From an uncultured Bacilli bacterium (GTDB taxonomy: Bacteria; Bacillota_I; Bacilli_A; RF39; UBA660), in assembly GCA_947628535.1 (NCBI GenBank), contig CANRAF010000001.1:268-64267 (forward strand): DNA of 64,000 nt. Direction: 5' to 3'. Position 1 is the stretch's first letter. Each line of letters begins with the position of its first letter. A program made the position numbers and the translations under genes. Below the pieces are notes generated by a model that saw only the letters and a program-made list of their open reading frames with translations, ran no database searches and had not been told where the DNA came from. Below, one piece after another: positions 4,732 to 59,542 of this stretch.

Positions 4732-6126
4732 TTATTTTATTATTATTGTTACAGTTGTTGTTTTTGGTGTATATGTTAATTTTAAATCTTCTCCTGTAAC
4801 TTGAACTTTTACTTTATGCGTTCCTTTATCTAATCCTTGTAAATCTACAAATGCTTGAATATTTTCTGAAGAAGCATCTTTAATATTAGTAGCTGATCCT
4901 TTTACTATTACTGTTGCTACTGAATCAGAACGCGATGCAGCTTGAGCTGTTAAGCCATCTTTTAAGTTTTTAGTTGCTATATTTATATTTTTAACTGTTT
5001 TTTCTTTAACATCTGCTAAAGTAACTTCTGCAACTACAGATTTAGTAGATATTTCTCTTACTCCACTTGGAAGTGATAAGTTAACTGTATATTCTGTTTT
5101 CTTATCAAGACCATCTACATTTATATTTACTGGTATATATGAAATCTTTTCTAAGGCACTTTCATTACCATAAATAGTAGCATTTGTCTTACTTAATTTT
5201 ATTTCATCTATAGCTTTTCCAAAGGCAACTTCACCTTCTGGAACAACTCTAAGTGGTACTTCTTTACTTGGGGATGCTATTTCTATTGAAGCATCAACTG
5301 TTCCAGGAACTATTTCTATGTCCAGTTTATTACCTTTTGAATCATAAGCCACAAGAGGTATTTCTTTAAGTGTTGTTGTTCCAACTGTAGGTTTAGTTAT
5401 TTTTCTAATATCAACTAAAGCCTTAACTGTTGCTATTTGTTCTAGTTTGTATTCTGCACCTTTTACATATACTTCATCCCTACTGAAACTTATATCAGAA
5501 ATAGTATATTTAGAATCTAAACTATCTTCATATAGAATTTCTTTAGTTATTTTCTTAGATTCAGACATTTTTTCATAAACAACAACTGTTGCTACTGATG
5601 GATCTAGTTTATAATCTATTGATGAAACTGATCCACTATATTTTAAATCTACTTTATGGGTTCCAGGTTTTAAATCACGAAGATCAATAACTACTTCGTC
5701 ATTTTGAAATTGTTTAGCTAGATATAAATCCGCTCTTCTACCAATCAAAGTAATATCAACTGTTTCTGGAAGTCCTTCAATAACATATGCTTCTTCATTA
5801 TAAAGAGCTGTTACTTGTTTATTATAAATAATATCTGCAGAATTATTTGTTAATACTTCTGTTATTTTATCAACTCCAAAGAAAGCTATAAGAGCTATTA
5901 ATAGTGATAGACTTATTAATACTAATTTGTTATTTAAAAGTCTATCAAGGGGTTTACTAGTACCTTTAAATGGTTTCATTGCTAGTAACATAAGTTTAGC
6001 AAGTGGAGTTATAATAATTTTATCTATAACTATATATATTTGACTAATTAAATAATAGATGCCACGAGCTAGTTTTTTTAATAATTTAAATTTTTTCTTT
6101 TTCTTTGAGGATTTTTTCTTTGCCAT
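4732..6126 (-). CDS. cdaR: CdaR/YbbR diadenylate cyclase regulator
   Basis: Repeated YbbR-like domains, directly downstream of cdaA. Confidence 0.85.
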   Translation of the reverse strand: MAKKKSSKKKKKFKLLKKLARGIYYLISQIYIVIDKIIITPLAKLMLLAMKPFKGTSKPLDRLLNNKLVLISLSLLIALIAFFGVDKITEVLTNNSADIIYNKQVTALYNEEAYVIEGLPETVDITLIGRRADLYLAKQFQNDEVVIDLRDLKPGTHKVDLKYSGSVSSIDYKLDPSVATVVVYEKMSESKKITKEILYEDSLDSKYTISDISFSRDEVYVKGAEYKLEQIATVKALVDIRKITKPTVGTTTLKEIPLVAYDSKGNKLDIEIVPGTVDASIEIASPSKEVPLRVVPEGEVAFGKAIDEIKLSKTNATIYGNESALEKISYIPVNINVDGLDKKTEYTVNLSLPSGVREISTKSVVAEVTLADVKEKTVKNINIATKNLKDGLTAQAASRSDSVATVIVKGSATNIKDASSENIQAFVDLQGLDKGTHKVKVQVTGEDLKLTYTPKTTTVTIIIK

Positions 6127-28024: not shown

Positions 28025-31000
28025 TTATTTTTTTGTTTTATTTCTGTTATATACTTCATATGCTCCTACTGATACCAATGATAATCCTAATATTATTCCT
28101 ATAATTGATATAAAACTTCCTGTATCTGGTACCTCTATTACTGTTCCTTCTATTTCTTCTTTCTTTTTGTTTTGTTCTTCTATTACCTTATATTTTGCAT
28201 AGAATATTCTATCACTATCTAGTTTTATTTCTTCTCCAACTTTATATAATACTTCTCCATTTTCTATAATGCTATATCCTAATAGTATTCCATTTTTTAT
28301 ACTTCTTTGTGGTGCTATTACACTACAACTATTATATGTTGTCTTACAACTTATTTCTTCTTTTCCATTTTTATATATGAATGTTGCTGTTAATATTTTT
28401 ACTGTTTCATCTATTCTCAATTTATATATTTCATCTTTTGTTATTGATATTTTACTTCCTGGTTTTATTCCCTCATCTTCACTTGATATACTAAATCCTA
28501 TTATTTCATAGTTTGTTTCTTCTACTTCTGGTAAAGTTATATCACATGCTAATTCTTTATTGTATATATAACAACTTTCTGATGCTTTTGATATTTTTAT
28601 CTTGTTATTTGGTGTTTCGAATTTTGCTGTTAGTTTCTTTTTTGTTATTGCATATAACGTCATGTTATCTGTTATTGTTATTCTATCTCCAACTGCATAT
28701 TCTTTTTCCTTTGCTGTATTACTACTTGCGTATCCTATTATTTCATAGCCTTCTCTTGTTATATCTGGTAATACTATTTCACAATTACCCTCTCCTGTAC
28801 AGCTTAATGTTTTATTTTCTATACTTGCTCCATTTTCTTCTAATGTTAATGTATAAGTACTTGTTTCAGGTGGTTTTATTTCTTCCTTTTTATATACTCC
28901 ATATAATGTTATATCTTTTGTTAAAGTAATCTCAATTCCTACATTATAATCTACACTACCTCCATTTGTTAGACTCCACCCTAAAAATTCACCATCTGTT
29001 ACTGTTTTTTGAGGCGTTACTATTTTGCAGCTATCACCTGTTGTTCTACAACTTAATCTTTCTTCATTTCCGTTAAATATGAATACTGCTGTAAACTCTT
29101 TTATCTTTTTTGCTCTTGCATAGTATGTTGTATCCTGAGTTAATGTTACTATATTTCCTTCTAATATACCCATATCTTCATCTGTTGTACTGAATCCTAA
29201 TATTTCATAACCTGTTGCTGTTATATTTGGAAGTGTTATATTACATCCTGTTTCTTCATTATATATATAACAACTTTCTGATGCTTTTGTTATTGTTAAA
29301 TCACTATTTGTTGTTTTAAATGTTGCTGTTAGTTTCTTTTTTGTTATTGCATATAGTGTCGTGTCGCTTGATAATATTATTCTATCTCCAACCTCATATT
29401 CTTTTTCCTTTGCTGTACTACTACTTGCATATCCTATTATTTCATAGCCTTCTCTTGTTATATCAGGTAATACTATTTCACAATTACTCTCTCCTGTACA
29501 GATTAATGCTTTATTTTCTATGCTTGCTCCATTTTCTTCTAATGTTAATGTATAGGTATTTGTTATTATATTTTTGCTACAAGTACCATACATTGTTGTT
29601 ATACTTTTTGTTGGTGTATACTCTCCTCCTGTTTCATAAGTTATTTCTTTCCCATTTTCTTTTTCTGTCCAACCACATGTATATCCTGCCTTTGTAATCG
29701 TTGGTAATGTTACACTTGGCATTGCACTCCACTTTGCATATAGTGTTGTTGTTCCAAATTTGCTCCAATTACCATTTTCATCTGTATATCCTGTTATATT
29801 ATTTTGTAATACTGGACTTGTTGCATTGCTTAACACTAAACTTCCTGAACTTGCTTCTGTATACCATCCTTCAAATGTTGCTGTTGATGTTAATTCATTT
29901 GTTGATGATACTGTAGCATTATCTGAATCATTTCCTTCTGATGTTGTAAATCCTCTTATTTTATATTCTTTCTTTGGTAATGTTATACTCGATGGATTTA
30001 ATGTTTTTGTGTTATATGTTATTTGTAAACTTCCTGGTTGTACATCTGTTGTTGCTCCGTTACTATTTAAATTTATTTTTACTTCATTTAATTTTGTCTC
30101 GCACACTCCATATAATGTTACATTTTCTGTTGGTGTATATTGTGATCCTGATGCATAAGTTATTTCTTTCCCATTTTCTTTTTCTGTCCAACCACATATG
30201 TATCCTTCTTTTTCTATTGTTGGTAATGTTATCTTTTGTGCTTGCCATCTAGCATACAATGTAGTTGCTGCATTTCTTATCCAGTTCCCACTTGTATCCG
30301 TATATCCTGTTATATTATTTTGTAATACTGGACTTGTTGCATTGCTTAACACTAAACTTCCTGAACTTGCTTCTGTATACCATCCTTCAAATGTTGCTGT
30401 TGATGTTAGTTCATTTGTTGATGATACTGTAGCATTATCTGAATTACTTTCTTTTGATGTTTTAAATCCACTTACTGTGTGTTCTTTCTTTGGTATTGTT
30501 ATTGTACTTGGAGTTATTACCTTTGTGTTATATGTTATTTGTAAACTTCCTGGTTGTGCATCTGTTGTTGCTCCGTTACTATTTAATGTTATTGTATATG
30601 TATTTGGTATAAATGTTGAAGTTATTGTTCCTGCCGAACCTACTGTTACTATTGCTGGTGATTCTGAACTTGTTGATAATCCTGTAAATTTACTAAATGT
30701 ATATCCAGTATTTGCTGTTGCTGTTGATGTTATTGTTTCTCCACTTCTTGCTGTTAAACTCTTATTTCCTGAAGTTCCTGATGTTGTTGCTGTTACTCCT
30801 GTTTTATTACTTTGTGCTGTTACTTTATGACTTCCATTTCCATCTGTTGCTACTGTTATTTCATATTCTGTTCTATCAAACCACATTGAATATGTTGAAT
30901 CTGCTGTTAAACTTGGCACTGTTTGACTTACTGAAGCTGCTGTTTCACTTGCTGCCCCTGTGCTTATTCCTTTAAATGTTGATTCTGTTGCATGTGTTGG

Positions 31001-55677: not shown

Positions 55678-55757
55678 AATATCATCTCCTTTATTTAAGT
55701 TTATCATATTTATAAAAAAAATAAAACCACAAAAGTGGTTTAATGAAGAATAAAAAG

Positions 55758-56006
55758 TTAAGAAATTAATTTTAAAAAAGCTTCTTTGTGAAAGTTGTTT
55801 AAACTTCTCACCGAATAGTATTTCTGTGCCCTCCCATATTTCGAAAAATCCATATTGTATGATATGTATGTTAAACTCTGTTTCTTCCAGTATATCCTTA
55901 CTATTATCTCTGTCTCATACCCATTCAATCCCTTTTCTCTACATTTCTCTATTAATTCCTCTTTGTTCGTCGGTAAATTCATCAATGTCTTTAATCTCTT
56001 TGGCAC
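55758..56006 (-). CDS. sigma-region-4/ArpU-like HTH protein, copy 1
   Basis: ETEIIVRIYWKKQSLTYIS...YSVRSLNNFHKEAFLKL; GTG start overlapping the upstream stop; the 3 inter-copy SNPs are all synonymous in this frame. Confidence 0.65.
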   Translation of the reverse strand: MPKRLKTLMNLPTNKEELIEKCREKGLNGYETEIIVRIYWKKQSLTYISYNMDFSKYGRAQKYYSVRSLNNFHKEAFLKLIS

Positions 56007-56443
56007 TTCTCTTCTCCCTTTACTACTATATAGTTCATGTATACCGCTAACATACTACCTAATATTATACATAATAACACACTTACATATATGCTCGGTA
56101 TTAAGGCTGTTATTATATAAAATATTGTCCATGTGAATGTCGTACATGCCACTGTCGAGTTTAAATGAAATGTCTCCCCTAAAAGTGTTCTCACAAAGAA
56201 AAATCCTATTAGAAAAAATGATAACTCTGCAAACGCATCATTAAAATATGCTATTACAAATACTCCCGCTGTTTGTATTAATTGAAGTGGTATTGTTATT
56301 CCATAAAATATTACATTTTCTATTATTCTCTCTAATTTTTCTGCTCTTGTTTGGGCAAAATTCTCTATCGATGCTGTATTATTAAACCAAATCCCGTTCT
56401 TTCTCTTTCTCTTCTCTTTTTCTTCGTTTCCTTTCTTATTCAT
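55991..56443 (-). CDS. AgrB-like membrane peptidase, copy 1
   Basis: VRTLLGETFHLNSTVAC retains R...G..H-x6-C (His-Cys spacing as in S. aureus AgrB H77/C84); about 4 TM; GGAGG RBS. Confidence 0.65.
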   Translation of the reverse strand: MNKKGNEEKEKRKRKNGIWFNNTASIENFAQTRAEKLERIIENVIFYGITIPLQLIQTAGVFVIAYFNDAFAELSFFLIGFFFVRTLLGETFHLNSTVACTTFTWTIFYIITALIPSIYVSVLLCIILGSMLAVYMNYIVVKGEEKCQRD

Positions 56444-56505
56444 TTATTCCTCCTATTTGTTTAATAATAGACAAGGGCCCTTTTATCTATTATTCTTTTT
56501 ATTTA

Positions 56506-56598
56506 TTATTTTGCTATGTTAACTACTTTTTTTGCTAGTTTCTTTGCAAATTTGTTTTCTTTGTCGAATTTGCCCCACCATAATAGGCTTTGTCCCAT
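56506..56598 (-). CDS. 30-aa peptide MGQSLLWWGKFDKENKFAKKLAKKVVNIAK, copy 1 (absent from the ORF track)
   Basis: AGAGGTG RBS, ATG at 56598, TAA-TAA; overlaps the 3' end of the membrane-protein gene in another frame. Confidence 0.65.
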   Translation of the reverse strand: MGQSLLWWGKFDKENKFAKKLAKKVVNIAK

Positions 56599-57190
56599 CT
56601 TTTACACCTCTTTTCTTTAAATATACTTCTTTTACTAATATAATTATTCCCATAATTATAAAGTAATCTATTGATAATAAATTCCTCGTTGTTTCATTTA
56701 TTTGTGTAAAATCTATAAATCTTACTTTATACATATATGTTATTCCTTCTATTACTACATTTAATCCTATACTTAAAAATATATATATGATACTTCTTAT
56801 TTTTCTTTTTGAATATATATAACCAAATACTATGAAGAAGATTATTACAAATAATTGTGCTATTCCTTTATCAAATATTCCTACTACTAATATATTTAGT
56901 AATAAATATACAATACTAAATTTAAATAATTTCTTGGCATCTTTTACTCTAAACACTATGAGCATAACTGCATAAAAATTTAATATGATAACTATCCAAT
57001 TTGTTATATAATCTATTGCTTTTATAACATTTATTTCCTTTAGATTTTCATATGTTACTGCATAATGTGGAAATCCCATACTTTCCATAGCTGTATTGAA
57101 TATTATTAACATAACCATTATTATCAGTAACCACACTACTACCTTTGCTATTTTCTCATTTACCCCTAACCATTTTATGAAATCCTTCAT
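56519..57190 (-). CDS. multi-pass membrane protein (about 6 TM, no kinase domain), copy 1
   Basis: GAGGT RBS before MKDFIKW; hydrophobic helices; TATAAT at 57215-57210. Confidence 0.75.
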   Translation of the reverse strand: MKDFIKWLGVNEKIAKVVVWLLIIMVMLIIFNTAMESMGFPHYAVTYENLKEINVIKAIDYITNWIVIILNFYAVMLIVFRVKDAKKLFKFSIVYLLLNILVVGIFDKGIAQLFVIIFFIVFGYIYSKRKIRSIIYIFLSIGLNVVIEGITYMYKVRFIDFTQINETTRNLLSIDYFIIMGIIILVKEVYLKKRGVKDGTKPIMVGQIRQRKQICKETSKKSS

Positions 57191-57351
57191 ATATACTACC
57201 TCACTTCCGATTATACTATATCTATCTTTCTTTGTAACGCAATTGTTACGCAAATGATGTGCTTTTCCATTTTTTTCCATTTACTATTTTATCATCTTTT
57301 TAATTTGTAATGGAACTTATTTGTTACTTTATTTATATTATAATGTTTTTA

Positions 57352-57388: not shown

Positions 57389-57733
57389 GGGGACGATAGG
57401 GTTCGACAAGAGTATAATGATTTAAACTGCAAGTAGATGGCAATCTTTAAATGCATTTTTAAAAATAACTGGAAACAGACAATTACAATTCGCTTAATTT
57501 AATTAACTAGAGCGAGCTCTTGTATATTCTCTGCTTACTGGAATATATTAGGGTAATACTAAGTAGGCTATATTACTATAGTTCCTATATATAGTAATGA
57601 ATTTTTATAGGATAGTTGTCTATGTGGTTGTTAATTGCTTTGTGGATAATGAATTTTTTCAATTAACTAAACTTGTAGATGTTTAAATTTAATTTGCTTT
57701 TGGACAGGAGTTCAATTCTCCTCGTCTCCACCA
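57389..57733 (+). ncRNA. ssrA: tmRNA
   Basis: 5' GGGGACG...TTCGAC pairs with 3' CGTCTCCACCA (G3:U), T-loop TTCAATT, ATAACT resume context followed by tag ORF GNRQLQFA-stop (57471-57497). Confidence 0.95.
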
Positions 57734-57757: not shown

Positions 57758-57831
57758 GCCGATTTAGTTTAGTGGTAAAACAGATGCATGGTAAGCATCA
57801 GAGATCAGTTCAATTCTGTTAATCGGCACCA
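57758..57831 (+). tRNA. tRNA-Thr(GGU)
   Basis: GCCGATT/AATCGGC acceptor stem, GATGC-ATGGTAA-GCATC anticodon arm, ACCA end; one T-stem mismatch. Confidence 0.85.
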
Positions 57832-57929: not shown

Positions 57930-57957
57930 ATTTTTATTATATCTGAAGAATAAAAAG

Positions 57958-58206
57958 TTAAGAAATTAATTTTAAAAAAGCTTCTTTGTGAAAGTTGTTT
58001 AAACTTCTCACTGAATAGTATTTCTGTGCCCTCCCATATTTCGAAAAATCCATATTATATGATATGTATGTTAAACTCTGTTTCTTCCAGTATATCCTTA
58101 CTATTATCTCTGTCTCATACCCATTCAATCCTTTTTCTCTACATTTCTCTATTAATTCCTCTTTGTTCGTCGGTAAATTCATCAATGTCTTTAATCTCTT
58201 TGGCAC
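57958..58206 (-). CDS. sigma-region-4/ArpU-like HTH protein, copy 2
   Basis: Protein identical to copy 1. Confidence 0.65.
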   Translation of the reverse strand: MPKRLKTLMNLPTNKEELIEKCREKGLNGYETEIIVRIYWKKQSLTYISYNMDFSKYGRAQKYYSVRSLNNFHKEAFLKLIS

Positions 58207-58643
58207 TTCTCTTCTCCCTTTACTACTATATAGTTCATGTATACCGCTAACATACTACCTAATATTATACATAATAACACACTTACATATATGCTCGGTA
58301 TTAAGGCTGTTATTATATAAAATATTGTCCATGTGAATGTCGTACATGCCACTGTCGAGTTTAAATGAAATGTCTCCCCTAAAAGTGTTCTCACAAAGAA
58401 AAATCCTATTAGAAAAAATGATAACTCTGCAAACGCATCATTAAAATATGCTATTACAAATACTCCCGCTGTTTGTATTAATTGAAGTGGTATTGTTATT
58501 CCATAAAATATTACATTTTCTATTATTCTCTCTAATTTTTCTGCTCTTGTTTGGGCAAAATTCTCTATCGATGCTGTATTATTAAACCAAATCCCGTTCT
58601 TTCTCTTTCTCTTCTCTTTTTCTTCGTTTCCTTTCTTATTCAT
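58191..58643 (-). CDS. AgrB-like membrane peptidase, copy 2
   Basis: Identical to copy 1. Confidence 0.65.
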   Translation of the reverse strand: MNKKGNEEKEKRKRKNGIWFNNTASIENFAQTRAEKLERIIENVIFYGITIPLQLIQTAGVFVIAYFNDAFAELSFFLIGFFFVRTLLGETFHLNSTVACTTFTWTIFYIITALIPSIYVSVLLCIILGSMLAVYMNYIVVKGEEKCQRD

Positions 58644-58705
58644 TTATTCCTCCTATTTGTTTAATAATAGACAAGGGCCCTTTTATCTATTATTCTTTTT
58701 ATTTA

Positions 58706-58798
58706 TTATTTTGCTATGTTAACTACTTTTTTTGCTAGTTTCTTTGCAAATTTGTTTTCTTTGTCGAATTTGCCCCACCATAATAGGCTTTGTCCCAT
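58706..58798 (-). CDS. 30-aa peptide, copy 2
   Basis: Identical to copy 1. Confidence 0.65.
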   Translation of the reverse strand: MGQSLLWWGKFDKENKFAKKLAKKVVNIAK

Positions 58799-59390
58799 CT
58801 TTTACACCTCTTTTCTTTAAATATACTTCTTTTACTAATATAATTATTCCCATAATTATAAAGTAATCTATTGATAATAAATTCCTCGTTGTTTCATTTA
58901 TTTGTGTAAAATCTATAAATCTTACTTTATACATATATGTTATTCCTTCTATTACTACATTTAATCCTATACTTAAAAATATATATATGATACTTCTTAT
59001 TTTTCTTTTTGAATATATATAACCAAATACTATGAAGAAGATTATTACAAATAATTGTGCTATTCCTTTATCAAATATTCCTACTACTAATATATTTAGT
59101 AATAAATATACAATACTAAATTTAAATAATTTCTTGGCATCTTTTACTCTAAACACTATGAGCATAACTGCATAAAAATTTAATATGATAACTATCCAAT
59201 TTGTTATATAATCTATTGCTTTTATAACATTTATTTCCTTTAGATTTTCATATGTTACTGCATAATGTGGAAATCCCATACTTTCCATAGCTGTATTGAA
59301 TATTATTAACATAACCATTATTATCAGTAACCACACTACTACCTTTGCTATTTTCTCATTTACCCCTAACCATTTTATGAAATCCTTCAT
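58719..59390 (-). CDS. multi-pass membrane protein, copy 2
   Basis: Identical to copy 1. Confidence 0.75.
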   Translation of the reverse strand: MKDFIKWLGVNEKIAKVVVWLLIIMVMLIIFNTAMESMGFPHYAVTYENLKEINVIKAIDYITNWIVIILNFYAVMLIVFRVKDAKKLFKFSIVYLLLNILVVGIFDKGIAQLFVIIFFIVFGYIYSKRKIRSIIYIFLSIGLNVVIEGITYMYKVRFIDFTQINETTRNLLSIDYFIIMGIIILVKEVYLKKRGVKDGTKPIMVGQIRQRKQICKETSKKSS

Positions 59391-59542
59391 ATATACTACC
59401 TCACTTCCGATTATACTATATCTATCTTTCTTTGTAACGCAATTGTTACGCAAATGATGTGCTTTTCCATTTTTTTCCATTTACTATTTTATCATCTTTT
59501 TTAGCCCTTTTTATTTTTTTTAACATAAAAAAAAGAATTTTG

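Follow-up and report, generated by a model that had tools for sequence, protein, structure and literature searches.

A candidate cyclic-peptide cassette of the agr type in uncultured gut Bacilli, with a non-canonical precursor and a putative kinase-free sensing arm

A four-gene cassette on the minus strand of CANRAF010000001.1, a contig from an uncultured rabbit-gut bacterium, may constitute a cyclic-peptide system of the agr type whose precursor is non-canonical and whose sensing arm works without a kinase, a reading of the sequence to which we give about an even chance of being right. The cassette lies within positions 55744-57301 of the 64,000-nucleotide (nt) stretch analyzed here (the window), and its genes run, 5' to 3', from a membrane protein through a small peptide and an AgrB-like protein to an 82-amino-acid (aa) protein of helix-turn-helix (HTH) type. 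Signaling of the agr type is the textbook peptide quorum sensing of Firmicutes and, to our knowledge, has always been described as AgrB and AgrD together with a histidine kinase and a LytTR regulator. The biosynthetic half of the proposal, in which the cassette very probably yields a small cyclic signaling peptide and which we infer from enzyme and precursor, is better supported than the sensing half, which is more speculative. An earlier note on this DNA had described a four-gene operon forming an agr-like peptide cassette, and both descriptions held: all four genes were called and were kept together in relatives, and the locus combined an AgrB profile match, an H-x6-C motif, and a conserved peptide gene.

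The 150-aa AgrB-like protein scored 30.2 bits with the Pfam profile for AgrB (PF04647), above the cut-off of 23 bits (E 3.6e-7), over profile positions 17 to 120 of 185, and PF04647 was the precomputed assignment of all of the at least 120 homologs listed. Its FHLNSTVAC segment provides the pair H93-x6-C100, both residues of which were invariant in an alignment of 25 homologs. In the protein annotated as AgrB in the Clostridioides difficile phage CDHM1, the counterpart aligned with this segment is FHARSNRLC. In Staphylococcus aureus AgrB, the catalytic pair is H77/C84, seven positions apart after the second transmembrane (TM) helix. The claim of an AgrB-like peptidase with H-x6-C was thereby borne out. 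The full-length AgrB architecture (about 185 to 210 aa, spanning the whole profile) was not matched, and because the protein is 150 aa long and its match stops at profile position 120 of 185, it is regarded as a shortened variant, an AgrB-family member of roughly four predicted TM helices that carries the catalytic His/Cys pair.

The peptide gene encodes MGQ-SLLWW-GKFDKENKFAKKLAKKVVNIAK, with a GAGGTG ribosome-binding site 6 nt upstream of its ATG, and overlaps the last 80 nt of the membrane gene in another frame. This frame was open in 21 distinct loci, starting with ATG, GTG, or TTG, and its codon-position entropy across 21 distinct nucleotide versions was 0.59, 0.30, and 0.96 for positions 1, 2, and 3, respectively, the signature of purifying selection on the peptide frame. 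The C-terminal tails of the membrane proteins fell into two unrelated types, representing two reading frames of one conserved DNA segment whose third frame was always the peptide open reading frame (ORF); in locus L022, the membrane ORF ended before the peptide ORF, leaving the small gene free. A chance ORF was rejected on the grounds that the frame was kept in 21 loci and had coding-type codon entropy, and the same evidence confirmed the suggestion that the overlapping 30-aa peptide is a real gene.

All precursors followed one plan: a variable lead of 2 to 9 residues, the core [S/C]-x-x-W-x, a Gly (Pro once), and a conserved tail of the form x-F-x-K/N-E-...-AKK-I/L-AKK. The core followed by G or P occurred in 21/21 distinct loci (e.g., SLLWW, CWLWW, SWFWI, and CYFWF), with Ser and Cys alternating at a fixed distance, 5 residues before the almost invariant Gly. 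Lead and ring were variable, and the follower, of 19 to 22 residues, was conserved. With the cleavage site placed as we infer it, the core would form a five-residue ring of the size found in autoinducing peptides (AIPs). A feature of AgrD was thus present, namely Ser or Cys five residues before the predicted cleavage site together with a hydrophobic ring end. The variable product joined to a conserved recognition part, the alternation of Ser with Cys, and the fixed spacing follow AgrD logic. Comparable products are the Ser-lactone AIP of S. intermedius and, in Enterococcus faecalis, gelatinase biosynthesis-activating pheromone (GBAP), which is made by FsrB. The conserved tail has the character of a cationic amphipathic helix, with a hydrophobic moment of about 0.6 (a value reached by at most 0.6% of shuffles in 5/6 cases) and a net charge of +4 to +7 (+6 in the peptide studied here).

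The four genes occurred together in 19 of 22 species-level gut genomes, at one chromosomal site, with the remaining three loci interrupted by contig ends or runs of N. The 22 genomes, labeled uncultured Bacilli, Tenericutes, Mycoplasma, or Erysipelotrichaceae, came from human, goat, and rabbit gut and from other samples. Whether the genes co-occur elsewhere had been set beforehand as a check on the cassette, and they did. In these relatives, the cassette was always found between MreB-GT4 and the hibernation factor HPF, and its site is a syntenic core chromosomal locus, not a mobile element. The AgrB-like, membrane, and 82-aa proteins each constituted a lineage-restricted family in gut metagenomes. 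Zero tblastn matches to the AgrB-like and HTH proteins were found in 50,697 GenBank phage records, pattern scans of IMG/VR recovered no cassette relative, and no integrase was seen near the cassette. A phage or mobile origin was rejected on the lack of phage relatives, the lack of a nearby integrase, and the syntenic core genes on both flanks; the earlier suggestion of a phage-type communication module is therefore not supported. A defense system was likewise rejected, since PADLOC returned no match for the cassette proteins.

The membrane gene was assigned a 223-aa product. A 253-aa ORF (57280..56519) was judged an over-extension because it encloses both a promoter and a GAGGT ribosome-binding site and because relatives, which are 199 to 237 aa long, begin in the alignment with MKDFIKWLG. 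The AlphaFold2 model (predicted local distance difference test score, pLDDT, 76) began with an amphipathic helix and continued through six TM helices into a disordered tail, in agreement with the earlier count of about six TM segments. No match was found in Pfam, NCBIfam (above threshold), PHROG, PADLOC, PDB sequences, or PDB folds. An HMMER profile search of 1.84 billion representatives recovered an orphan family of 36, none longer than 227 aa; a kinase-fused version is therefore taken not to exist. Alignment by hhalign to AgrC of phage CDHM1 was not significant (E 0.17). On the basis of the short orphan relatives, this alignment, and the missing PDB sequence or fold match, homology to the AgrC sensor was left without support, and the "sensor-sized" TM region described earlier holds as an analogy only. 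A Wzy-like glycan polymerase, hinted at by a sub-threshold TIGR04370 match (19.4 bits against a cut-off of 40) and by the neighboring GT4 gene, was also rejected, there being no longer homologs and the gene staying with the peptide gene in loci where the cassette is split.

Conservation within the membrane-protein family was uneven. The N-terminal helix and TM6 were conserved, and the least conserved blocks (residues 51-70, 101-110, and 161-170) mapped to the predicted outer face. In one species (L006, L007, L008, and L027), flanking genes were 98 to 100% identical and synonymous divergence (dS) was 0.004 to 0.045 for GT4 and 0 for AgrB, and residues 31-175 of the membrane protein were 59 to 68% identical, with dS of 0.95 to 2.4 and nonsynonymous divergence (dN) of 0.34 to 0.46. 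This hypervariable island is an ancient polymorphism, with alleles that were maintained or swapped through recombination, as in agr specificity groups. Among strains of the same species, the lead and ring of the peptide varied as well (SWLWI, SWFWI, and SFLWW). In L005, the membrane gene was broken right after MKDFIK (5270-5342), the gene caller restarting at 5342, and the rest of the cassette was identical to that of L007; this interruption may be a pseudogene or a sequencing error.

The start of the 82-aa gene overlaps the end of the agrB-like gene by 16 nt, through which the two are predicted to be translationally coupled. The 82-aa protein was modeled as helical (AlphaFold2, pLDDT 85), and its best Foldseek matches against the PDB were mostly sigma region 4, along with KorA/ArdK, all weak (E 0.6 to 3, template-modeling score about 0.5). 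It had no Pfam, NCBIfam, or PDB-sequence match, and it matched phrog_36, "transcriptional regulator", at E 0.008; family members were 60 to 91% identical to the protein of the window. Of the small sigma-region-4-like HTH protein in the earlier note, the small protein is secure and the sigma-region-4 label rests on these weak fold matches.

Upstream of the membrane gene, the promoter consists of a -35 GTTACA, a 17-nt spacer, and a -10 TATAAT ending at 57210. A direct repeat, TTGCR-N6-TTGCR, with an 11-bp period overlaps the -35 of the cassette promoters and occurred only twice in the window, once per cassette copy (the cassette is duplicated, see below). With a relaxed motif, 22 of 30 occurrences in 298 kb of related loci were located 57 to 63 nt upstream of the membrane-gene start, the other eight representing a single conserved site inside tmRNA. 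A further layer, likewise conserved, was noted upstream of the TTGCG repeats, at 57262-57294 (minus strand) and 59462-59494, where some 95 nt separate an extended -10-like TGATAAAAT from the start codon; after it come paired TGGAAA/TGGTAA half-sites that are direct in some species and inverted (TTGGTA-N5-TACCAA) in others. This layer may be a second promoter with a second operator, or a 5'-untranslated hairpin.

Taken as an agr-type system, the cassette would operate as follows. The follower helix would bring the precursor to the membrane, where the AgrB-like enzyme would cut after the fifth core residue through a Cys100 acyl-enzyme, releasing the follower (22 aa here), and the core Ser or Cys would close a five-residue lactone or thiolactone. 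The product in this genome would be the Ser4 lactone (M)GQ-cyclo[SLLWW]. Because the lead is so short, a second leader protease would not be needed. Exported peptide would then be read by the hypervariable outer face of the six-TM protein, and its invariant cytoplasmic N-terminal helix, the N-terminal domain of the AgrB-like protein, or both would hold or release the 82-aa sigma-4-like protein. Sigma region 4 is the domain that reads -35 elements, and the 82-aa protein would bind the TTGCR repeats at the -35, autoregulating the cassette. In its most specific form, this proposal makes the six-TM protein a new, phosphorylation-free AIP receptor, in which peptide bound to the polymorphic outer face causes the N-terminal helix to free or hold the 82-aa protein and the TTGCR repeats to switch the cassette and perhaps a regulon, with the precursor as a "leaderless, follower-anchored" AgrD matured by one processing enzyme. 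We advance that form tentatively, as a possibility well short of even.

Several observations weigh against an agr-type reading. No family was matched by the peptide at E <= 1 in Pfam or NCBIfam, including the AgrD models PF05931 and TIGR04223. Only 2 to 9 residues precede the core, in contrast to the amphipathic leader of about 20 to 25 residues in AgrD; the follower is basic (+4 to +7), unlike the acidic AgrD tail; and the peptide gene is upstream of agrB-like, whereas agrD is downstream of agrB. The enzyme lacks the C-terminal third of the PF04647 profile, the membrane protein resembles neither the AgrC sensor nor any known fold, and none of the fold matches of the 82-aa protein reached E <= 0.001. 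No RNA run containing the locus was found. Finally, L008 and L027 had a common membrane allele and different peptides, and L006 and L008 had a common peptide and different membrane alleles. This lack of strict linkage, seen in few strains, argues against a simple one-to-one pairing of receptor and ligand.

In agreement with the earlier note, which had reported neither kinase nor response regulator, no histidine kinase, receiver, or LytTR Pfam domain was found in the cassette proteins. LytTR, the AgrA-type DNA-binding domain, was not detected by tblastn in the 64-kb window or in loci of the same clade, and neither a kinase nor a LytTR was found in the window or in flanks of +/-5 kb within the clade. 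The claim thus holds for the cassette here and is qualified by its relatives: in 11 deeper-branching loci, the HTH gene was directly followed by a gene for a 243- to 245-aa protein with a C-terminal LytTR domain (Pfam E about 1e-16). Response_reg was not matched by Pfam in these proteins, whose N-terminal half was not recognized as a receiver. In a tree of MreB, GT4, and HPF, the LytTR-less loci formed one clade (100/100 support) nested among LytTR-bearing loci under midpoint rooting. Consequently, the absence of LytTR here would most simply reflect a single clade-specific loss or relocation at the base of the clade. The sister clades also had a cold-shock protein gene between the LytTR gene and HPF. 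One LytTR-bearing contig, L029 (CAZVVV010000057.1), was labeled a Muribaculaceae (Bacteroidota) metagenome-assembled genome, yet carried MreB-GT4-cassette-LytTR-HPF and grouped with the Bacilli loci in the tree; it was probably mis-binned.

The LytTR gene inside the cassette of sister clades also favors a different arrangement, in which the peptide is made as proposed and sensed elsewhere, by an unlinked two-component system or LytTR protein, as for an orphan agrBD-type pair. The six-TM protein would then be an exporter or processing partner and the 82-aa protein a local autoregulator. Loci with an orphan agrBD pair whose signal is read by distant regulators are known (PMC10602386), some means of export is required for a leaderless precursor, whose gene is overlapped by the membrane gene, and membrane and peptide alleles are not strictly linked. 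On the other side, an exporter has no obvious need for an ancient hypervariable outer face, the kinase or LytTR expected of a reader was not found in the stretches searched, and the hosts, going by genome labels only, are small-genome gut Bacilli. We consider sensing elsewhere a credible minority explanation, well short of even.

The strong amphipathicity and charge of the follower raise the question of a bacteriocin-like locus, in line with the toxin/immunity module offered as an alternative in the earlier note, in which the processed peptide or the freed cationic follower is antimicrobial, the six-TM protein confers immunity or export, and the HTH protein regulates the operon. Toxin-immunity loci typically show ancient polymorphism in a small membrane protein. 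The hairpin that follows the precursor gene (Table 1) also recalls operons for peptides that are made on ribosomes and modified after translation (RiPPs), in which precursor-proximal hairpins are common. This AT-rich element, which comes after the peptide stop and before the agrB-like ribosome-binding site, folded with a stem of 10 to 14 bp in 14 of 19 distinct loci, and in these single-sequence folds stem sequences varied between loci and a GGGCCC/GGGTCC loop recurred. RNAalifold on the MAFFT alignment of the hairpin gave no consensus structure because MAFFT misaligned the 3' arms. In the precursors, though, the follower was most conserved and lead and ring were most variable, the reverse of what a polymorphic toxin-immunity pair should show. 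Moreover, the cassette lacks an ABC transporter and a second immunity gene, was universal at a fixed core site rather than patchy, and had no PADLOC or phage matches; we know of no AgrB-family enzyme that matures a bacteriocin. Such a function is therefore considered unlikely.

The interval 55744-57301 of the window coincides exactly with one copy of a 1558-bp direct repeat, which recurs at 57944-59501 (offset 2200), with tmRNA and tRNA-Thr(GGU) sandwiched between both cassettes. The copies differ at three positions (55812, 55857, and 55932), each of which falls within the 82-aa gene, and they encode identical proteins. The two-copy layout was reproduced by an independent 5-kb contig, L009, and all four repeat junctions were crossed by contigs from rabbit-gut runs, one from a different study; an assembly artifact was therefore rejected and the duplication is regarded as real. 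The two copies flanking tmRNA double gene dosage, and copy 2, which adjoins GT4, occupies the ancestral position. All three differences lie close together at one edge, within the HTH gene, as would be expected after homogenization by gene conversion.

The tmRNA/tRNA-Thr pair also adjoined the cassette in L001, L015, and L026, with a single copy before tmRNA in L001 and a single copy after it in L026. L015, L016, and L021 carried complementary halves, with a mini membrane protein, AgrB-like, and HTH before tmRNA, and a full membrane gene and peptide after it. The two-copy state looks like the starting point for both the one-copy relatives and those with complementary halves. Each half of the split loci had its own repeat-bearing promoter, where repeats of the TTGCR/TGCG type occupy the corresponding position, in strict form in the membrane-peptide operon and more loosely in the mini-membrane operon. 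The retention of all four genes after rearrangement argues for joint function. The mini-protein, of 55 aa, corresponds to no more of the membrane protein than its N-terminal helix, TM1, and GFPxYxITY motif, was intact and conserved in three species, and stands in for the full membrane gene ahead of the AgrB-like and HTH genes, which suggests that the invariant N-terminal module of the membrane protein has a role of its own.

An intact mini-protein co-transcribed with AgrB-like and HTH in three species, along with the predicted translational coupling of the latter two genes, would also suit a regulated-proteolysis switch, in which the AgrB-like protease acts on the six-TM or the 82-aa protein in an anti-sigma-like cascade and the peptide serves as competitive substrate or modulator. 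The [S/C]-x4 core with its conserved follower suits cyclization better than plain inhibition, and no cleavage-site motif was identified in the membrane or HTH protein; we hold such a switch to be improbable, more so than an antimicrobial role. Least probable by a wide measure is that the 30-aa ORF is untranslated and its conservation stems from a DNA or RNA element or from constraint on the membrane tail. Although the ORF shares DNA with another gene and was annotated by no gene caller, the tail is read in two frames between species and ends earlier in L022, the peptide frame invariably has a start codon and stays open, and variability is highest at its third codon positions.

Table 1. Features of the duplicated cassette and of related loci (window coordinates unless a locus is given)
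Feature	Position	Strand	Remark
Six-TM membrane protein, copy 1, 223 aa	56519..57190	-	ATG at 57190
Precursor peptide gene, copy 1, 30 aa	56506..56598	-	own frame, overlaps 3' end of membrane gene
Hairpin AATAATAGA...GGGCCC...TCTATTATT, copy 1	56463..56494	-	between peptide stop and agrB-like ribosome-binding site
AgrB-like putative peptidase/cyclase, copy 1, 150 aa, ~4 TM	55991..56443	-	AGGAGG ribosome-binding site upstream
82-aa helical putative DNA-binding protein, copy 1	55758..56006	-	GTG start
Terminator-like hairpin just past copy 1	55724..55741	-	promoter/terminator scan
Cassette promoter/operator, copy 1	57210..57253	-	tandem TTGCGTAACAA TTGCGTTACAA repeat (motif 57238-57253), promoter scan
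tmRNA	57389-57733	+	ARAGORN
tRNA-Thr(GGU)	57758-57831	+	ARAGORN
Second cassette copy	57944..59501	-	repeat of copy 1, adjoins GT4
HTH-type protein, copy 2	57958-58206	-	
AgrB-like protein, copy 2	58191-58643	-	
Hairpin in peptide/agrB-like gap, copy 2	58663-58694	-	
Peptide gene, copy 2	58706-58798	-	
Membrane protein, copy 2	58719-59390	-	
Promoter/operator, copy 2	59410-59453	-	
55-aa mini membrane protein	L015 4820-4987; L016 1340-1507; L021 4822-4989		
Sister-clade LytTR proteins	L020 5689-6420; L023 5750-6487; L025 2874-3608		also in L022, L024, L029, L032-L036

Compared with staphylococcal and listerial agrBDCA, the cassette shares an AgrB-family membrane enzyme with a His-x6-Cys dyad, a small neighboring precursor in which Ser or Cys stands five residues ahead of the predicted cleavage site and the ring ends in bulky hydrophobic residues, a multi-TM partner of which one segment is hypervariable within species, and a direct-repeat promoter suggestive of autoregulation. 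Unlike agrBDCA, in which the order is B-D-C-A, the order here is membrane protein-peptide-AgrB-HTH, a long amphipathic leader at the N terminus of the precursor is missing (the amphipathic helix is instead the basic C-terminal follower), and the enzyme, at 150 aa, covers only part of the AgrB profile. A histidine kinase domain is absent and, in this clade, so is the receiver/LytTR protein, whose place is taken by a stand-alone 82-aa helical protein. Orphan agrBD loci, such as Agr1 of Clostridioides difficile and that of Clostridium perfringens, resemble the cassette in having AgrB and a precursor without adjacent AgrC/AgrA; their signal is sensed by unlinked two-component systems. Orphan clostridial loci have canonical AgrD architecture and AgrB of canonical length, and they lack the conserved six-TM partner and mini-HTH protein that are strictly linked here.

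The agr locus of phage CDHM1 (HG531805: agrD, agrB, agrC) includes a 62-aa product annotated as a "putative sigma factor protein" (28744-28932) just upstream of agrC, and the catalytic loop of its AgrB aligns with the 150-aa protein. In contrast to the cassette, it is phage-borne rather than part of the chromosomal core and encodes a full AgrC kinase, which has no similarity to the six-TM protein. No similarity was detected between its sigma-like gp38 (62 aa) and the 82-aa protein, and gp38 was rejected as a relative. Pairs of anti-sigma and extracytoplasmic function (ECF) sigma factors (e.g., RslA-SigL and RsiW-SigW) provide a working analogy, in which a membrane protein controls a sigma-4-type module at a -35-like element; the best, albeit weak, fold matches of the 82-aa protein were sigma-4 domains, several of them solved with anti-sigma factors. 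Unlike those sigma factors, the 82-aa protein has no sigma region 2 and hence cannot be a sigma factor; there was no sequence-level match, and no anti-sigma domain was detected in the membrane protein.

The literature consulted yielded orphan agrBD loci and genome-mined AIPs, and nothing with this architecture. Read as an agr-type system, the cassette retains AgrB chemistry, and its precursor architecture and transduction arm are new: a minimal precursor with the membrane-targeting helix in its follower, a cut-down enzyme, a kinase-less hypervariable partner, and a mini DNA-binding protein. Because the predicted products, lactones or thiolactones of 7 to 12 residues, can be synthesized directly, the hypothesis is testable without culturing the organism. 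If true, the cassette would represent a new, phosphorylation-independent way to sense cyclic peptides and a very small (about 1.5 kb), portable signaling module, and widespread, uncultured, small-genome Bacilli in the gut of humans, rabbits, and ruminants would use strain-specific "dialects".

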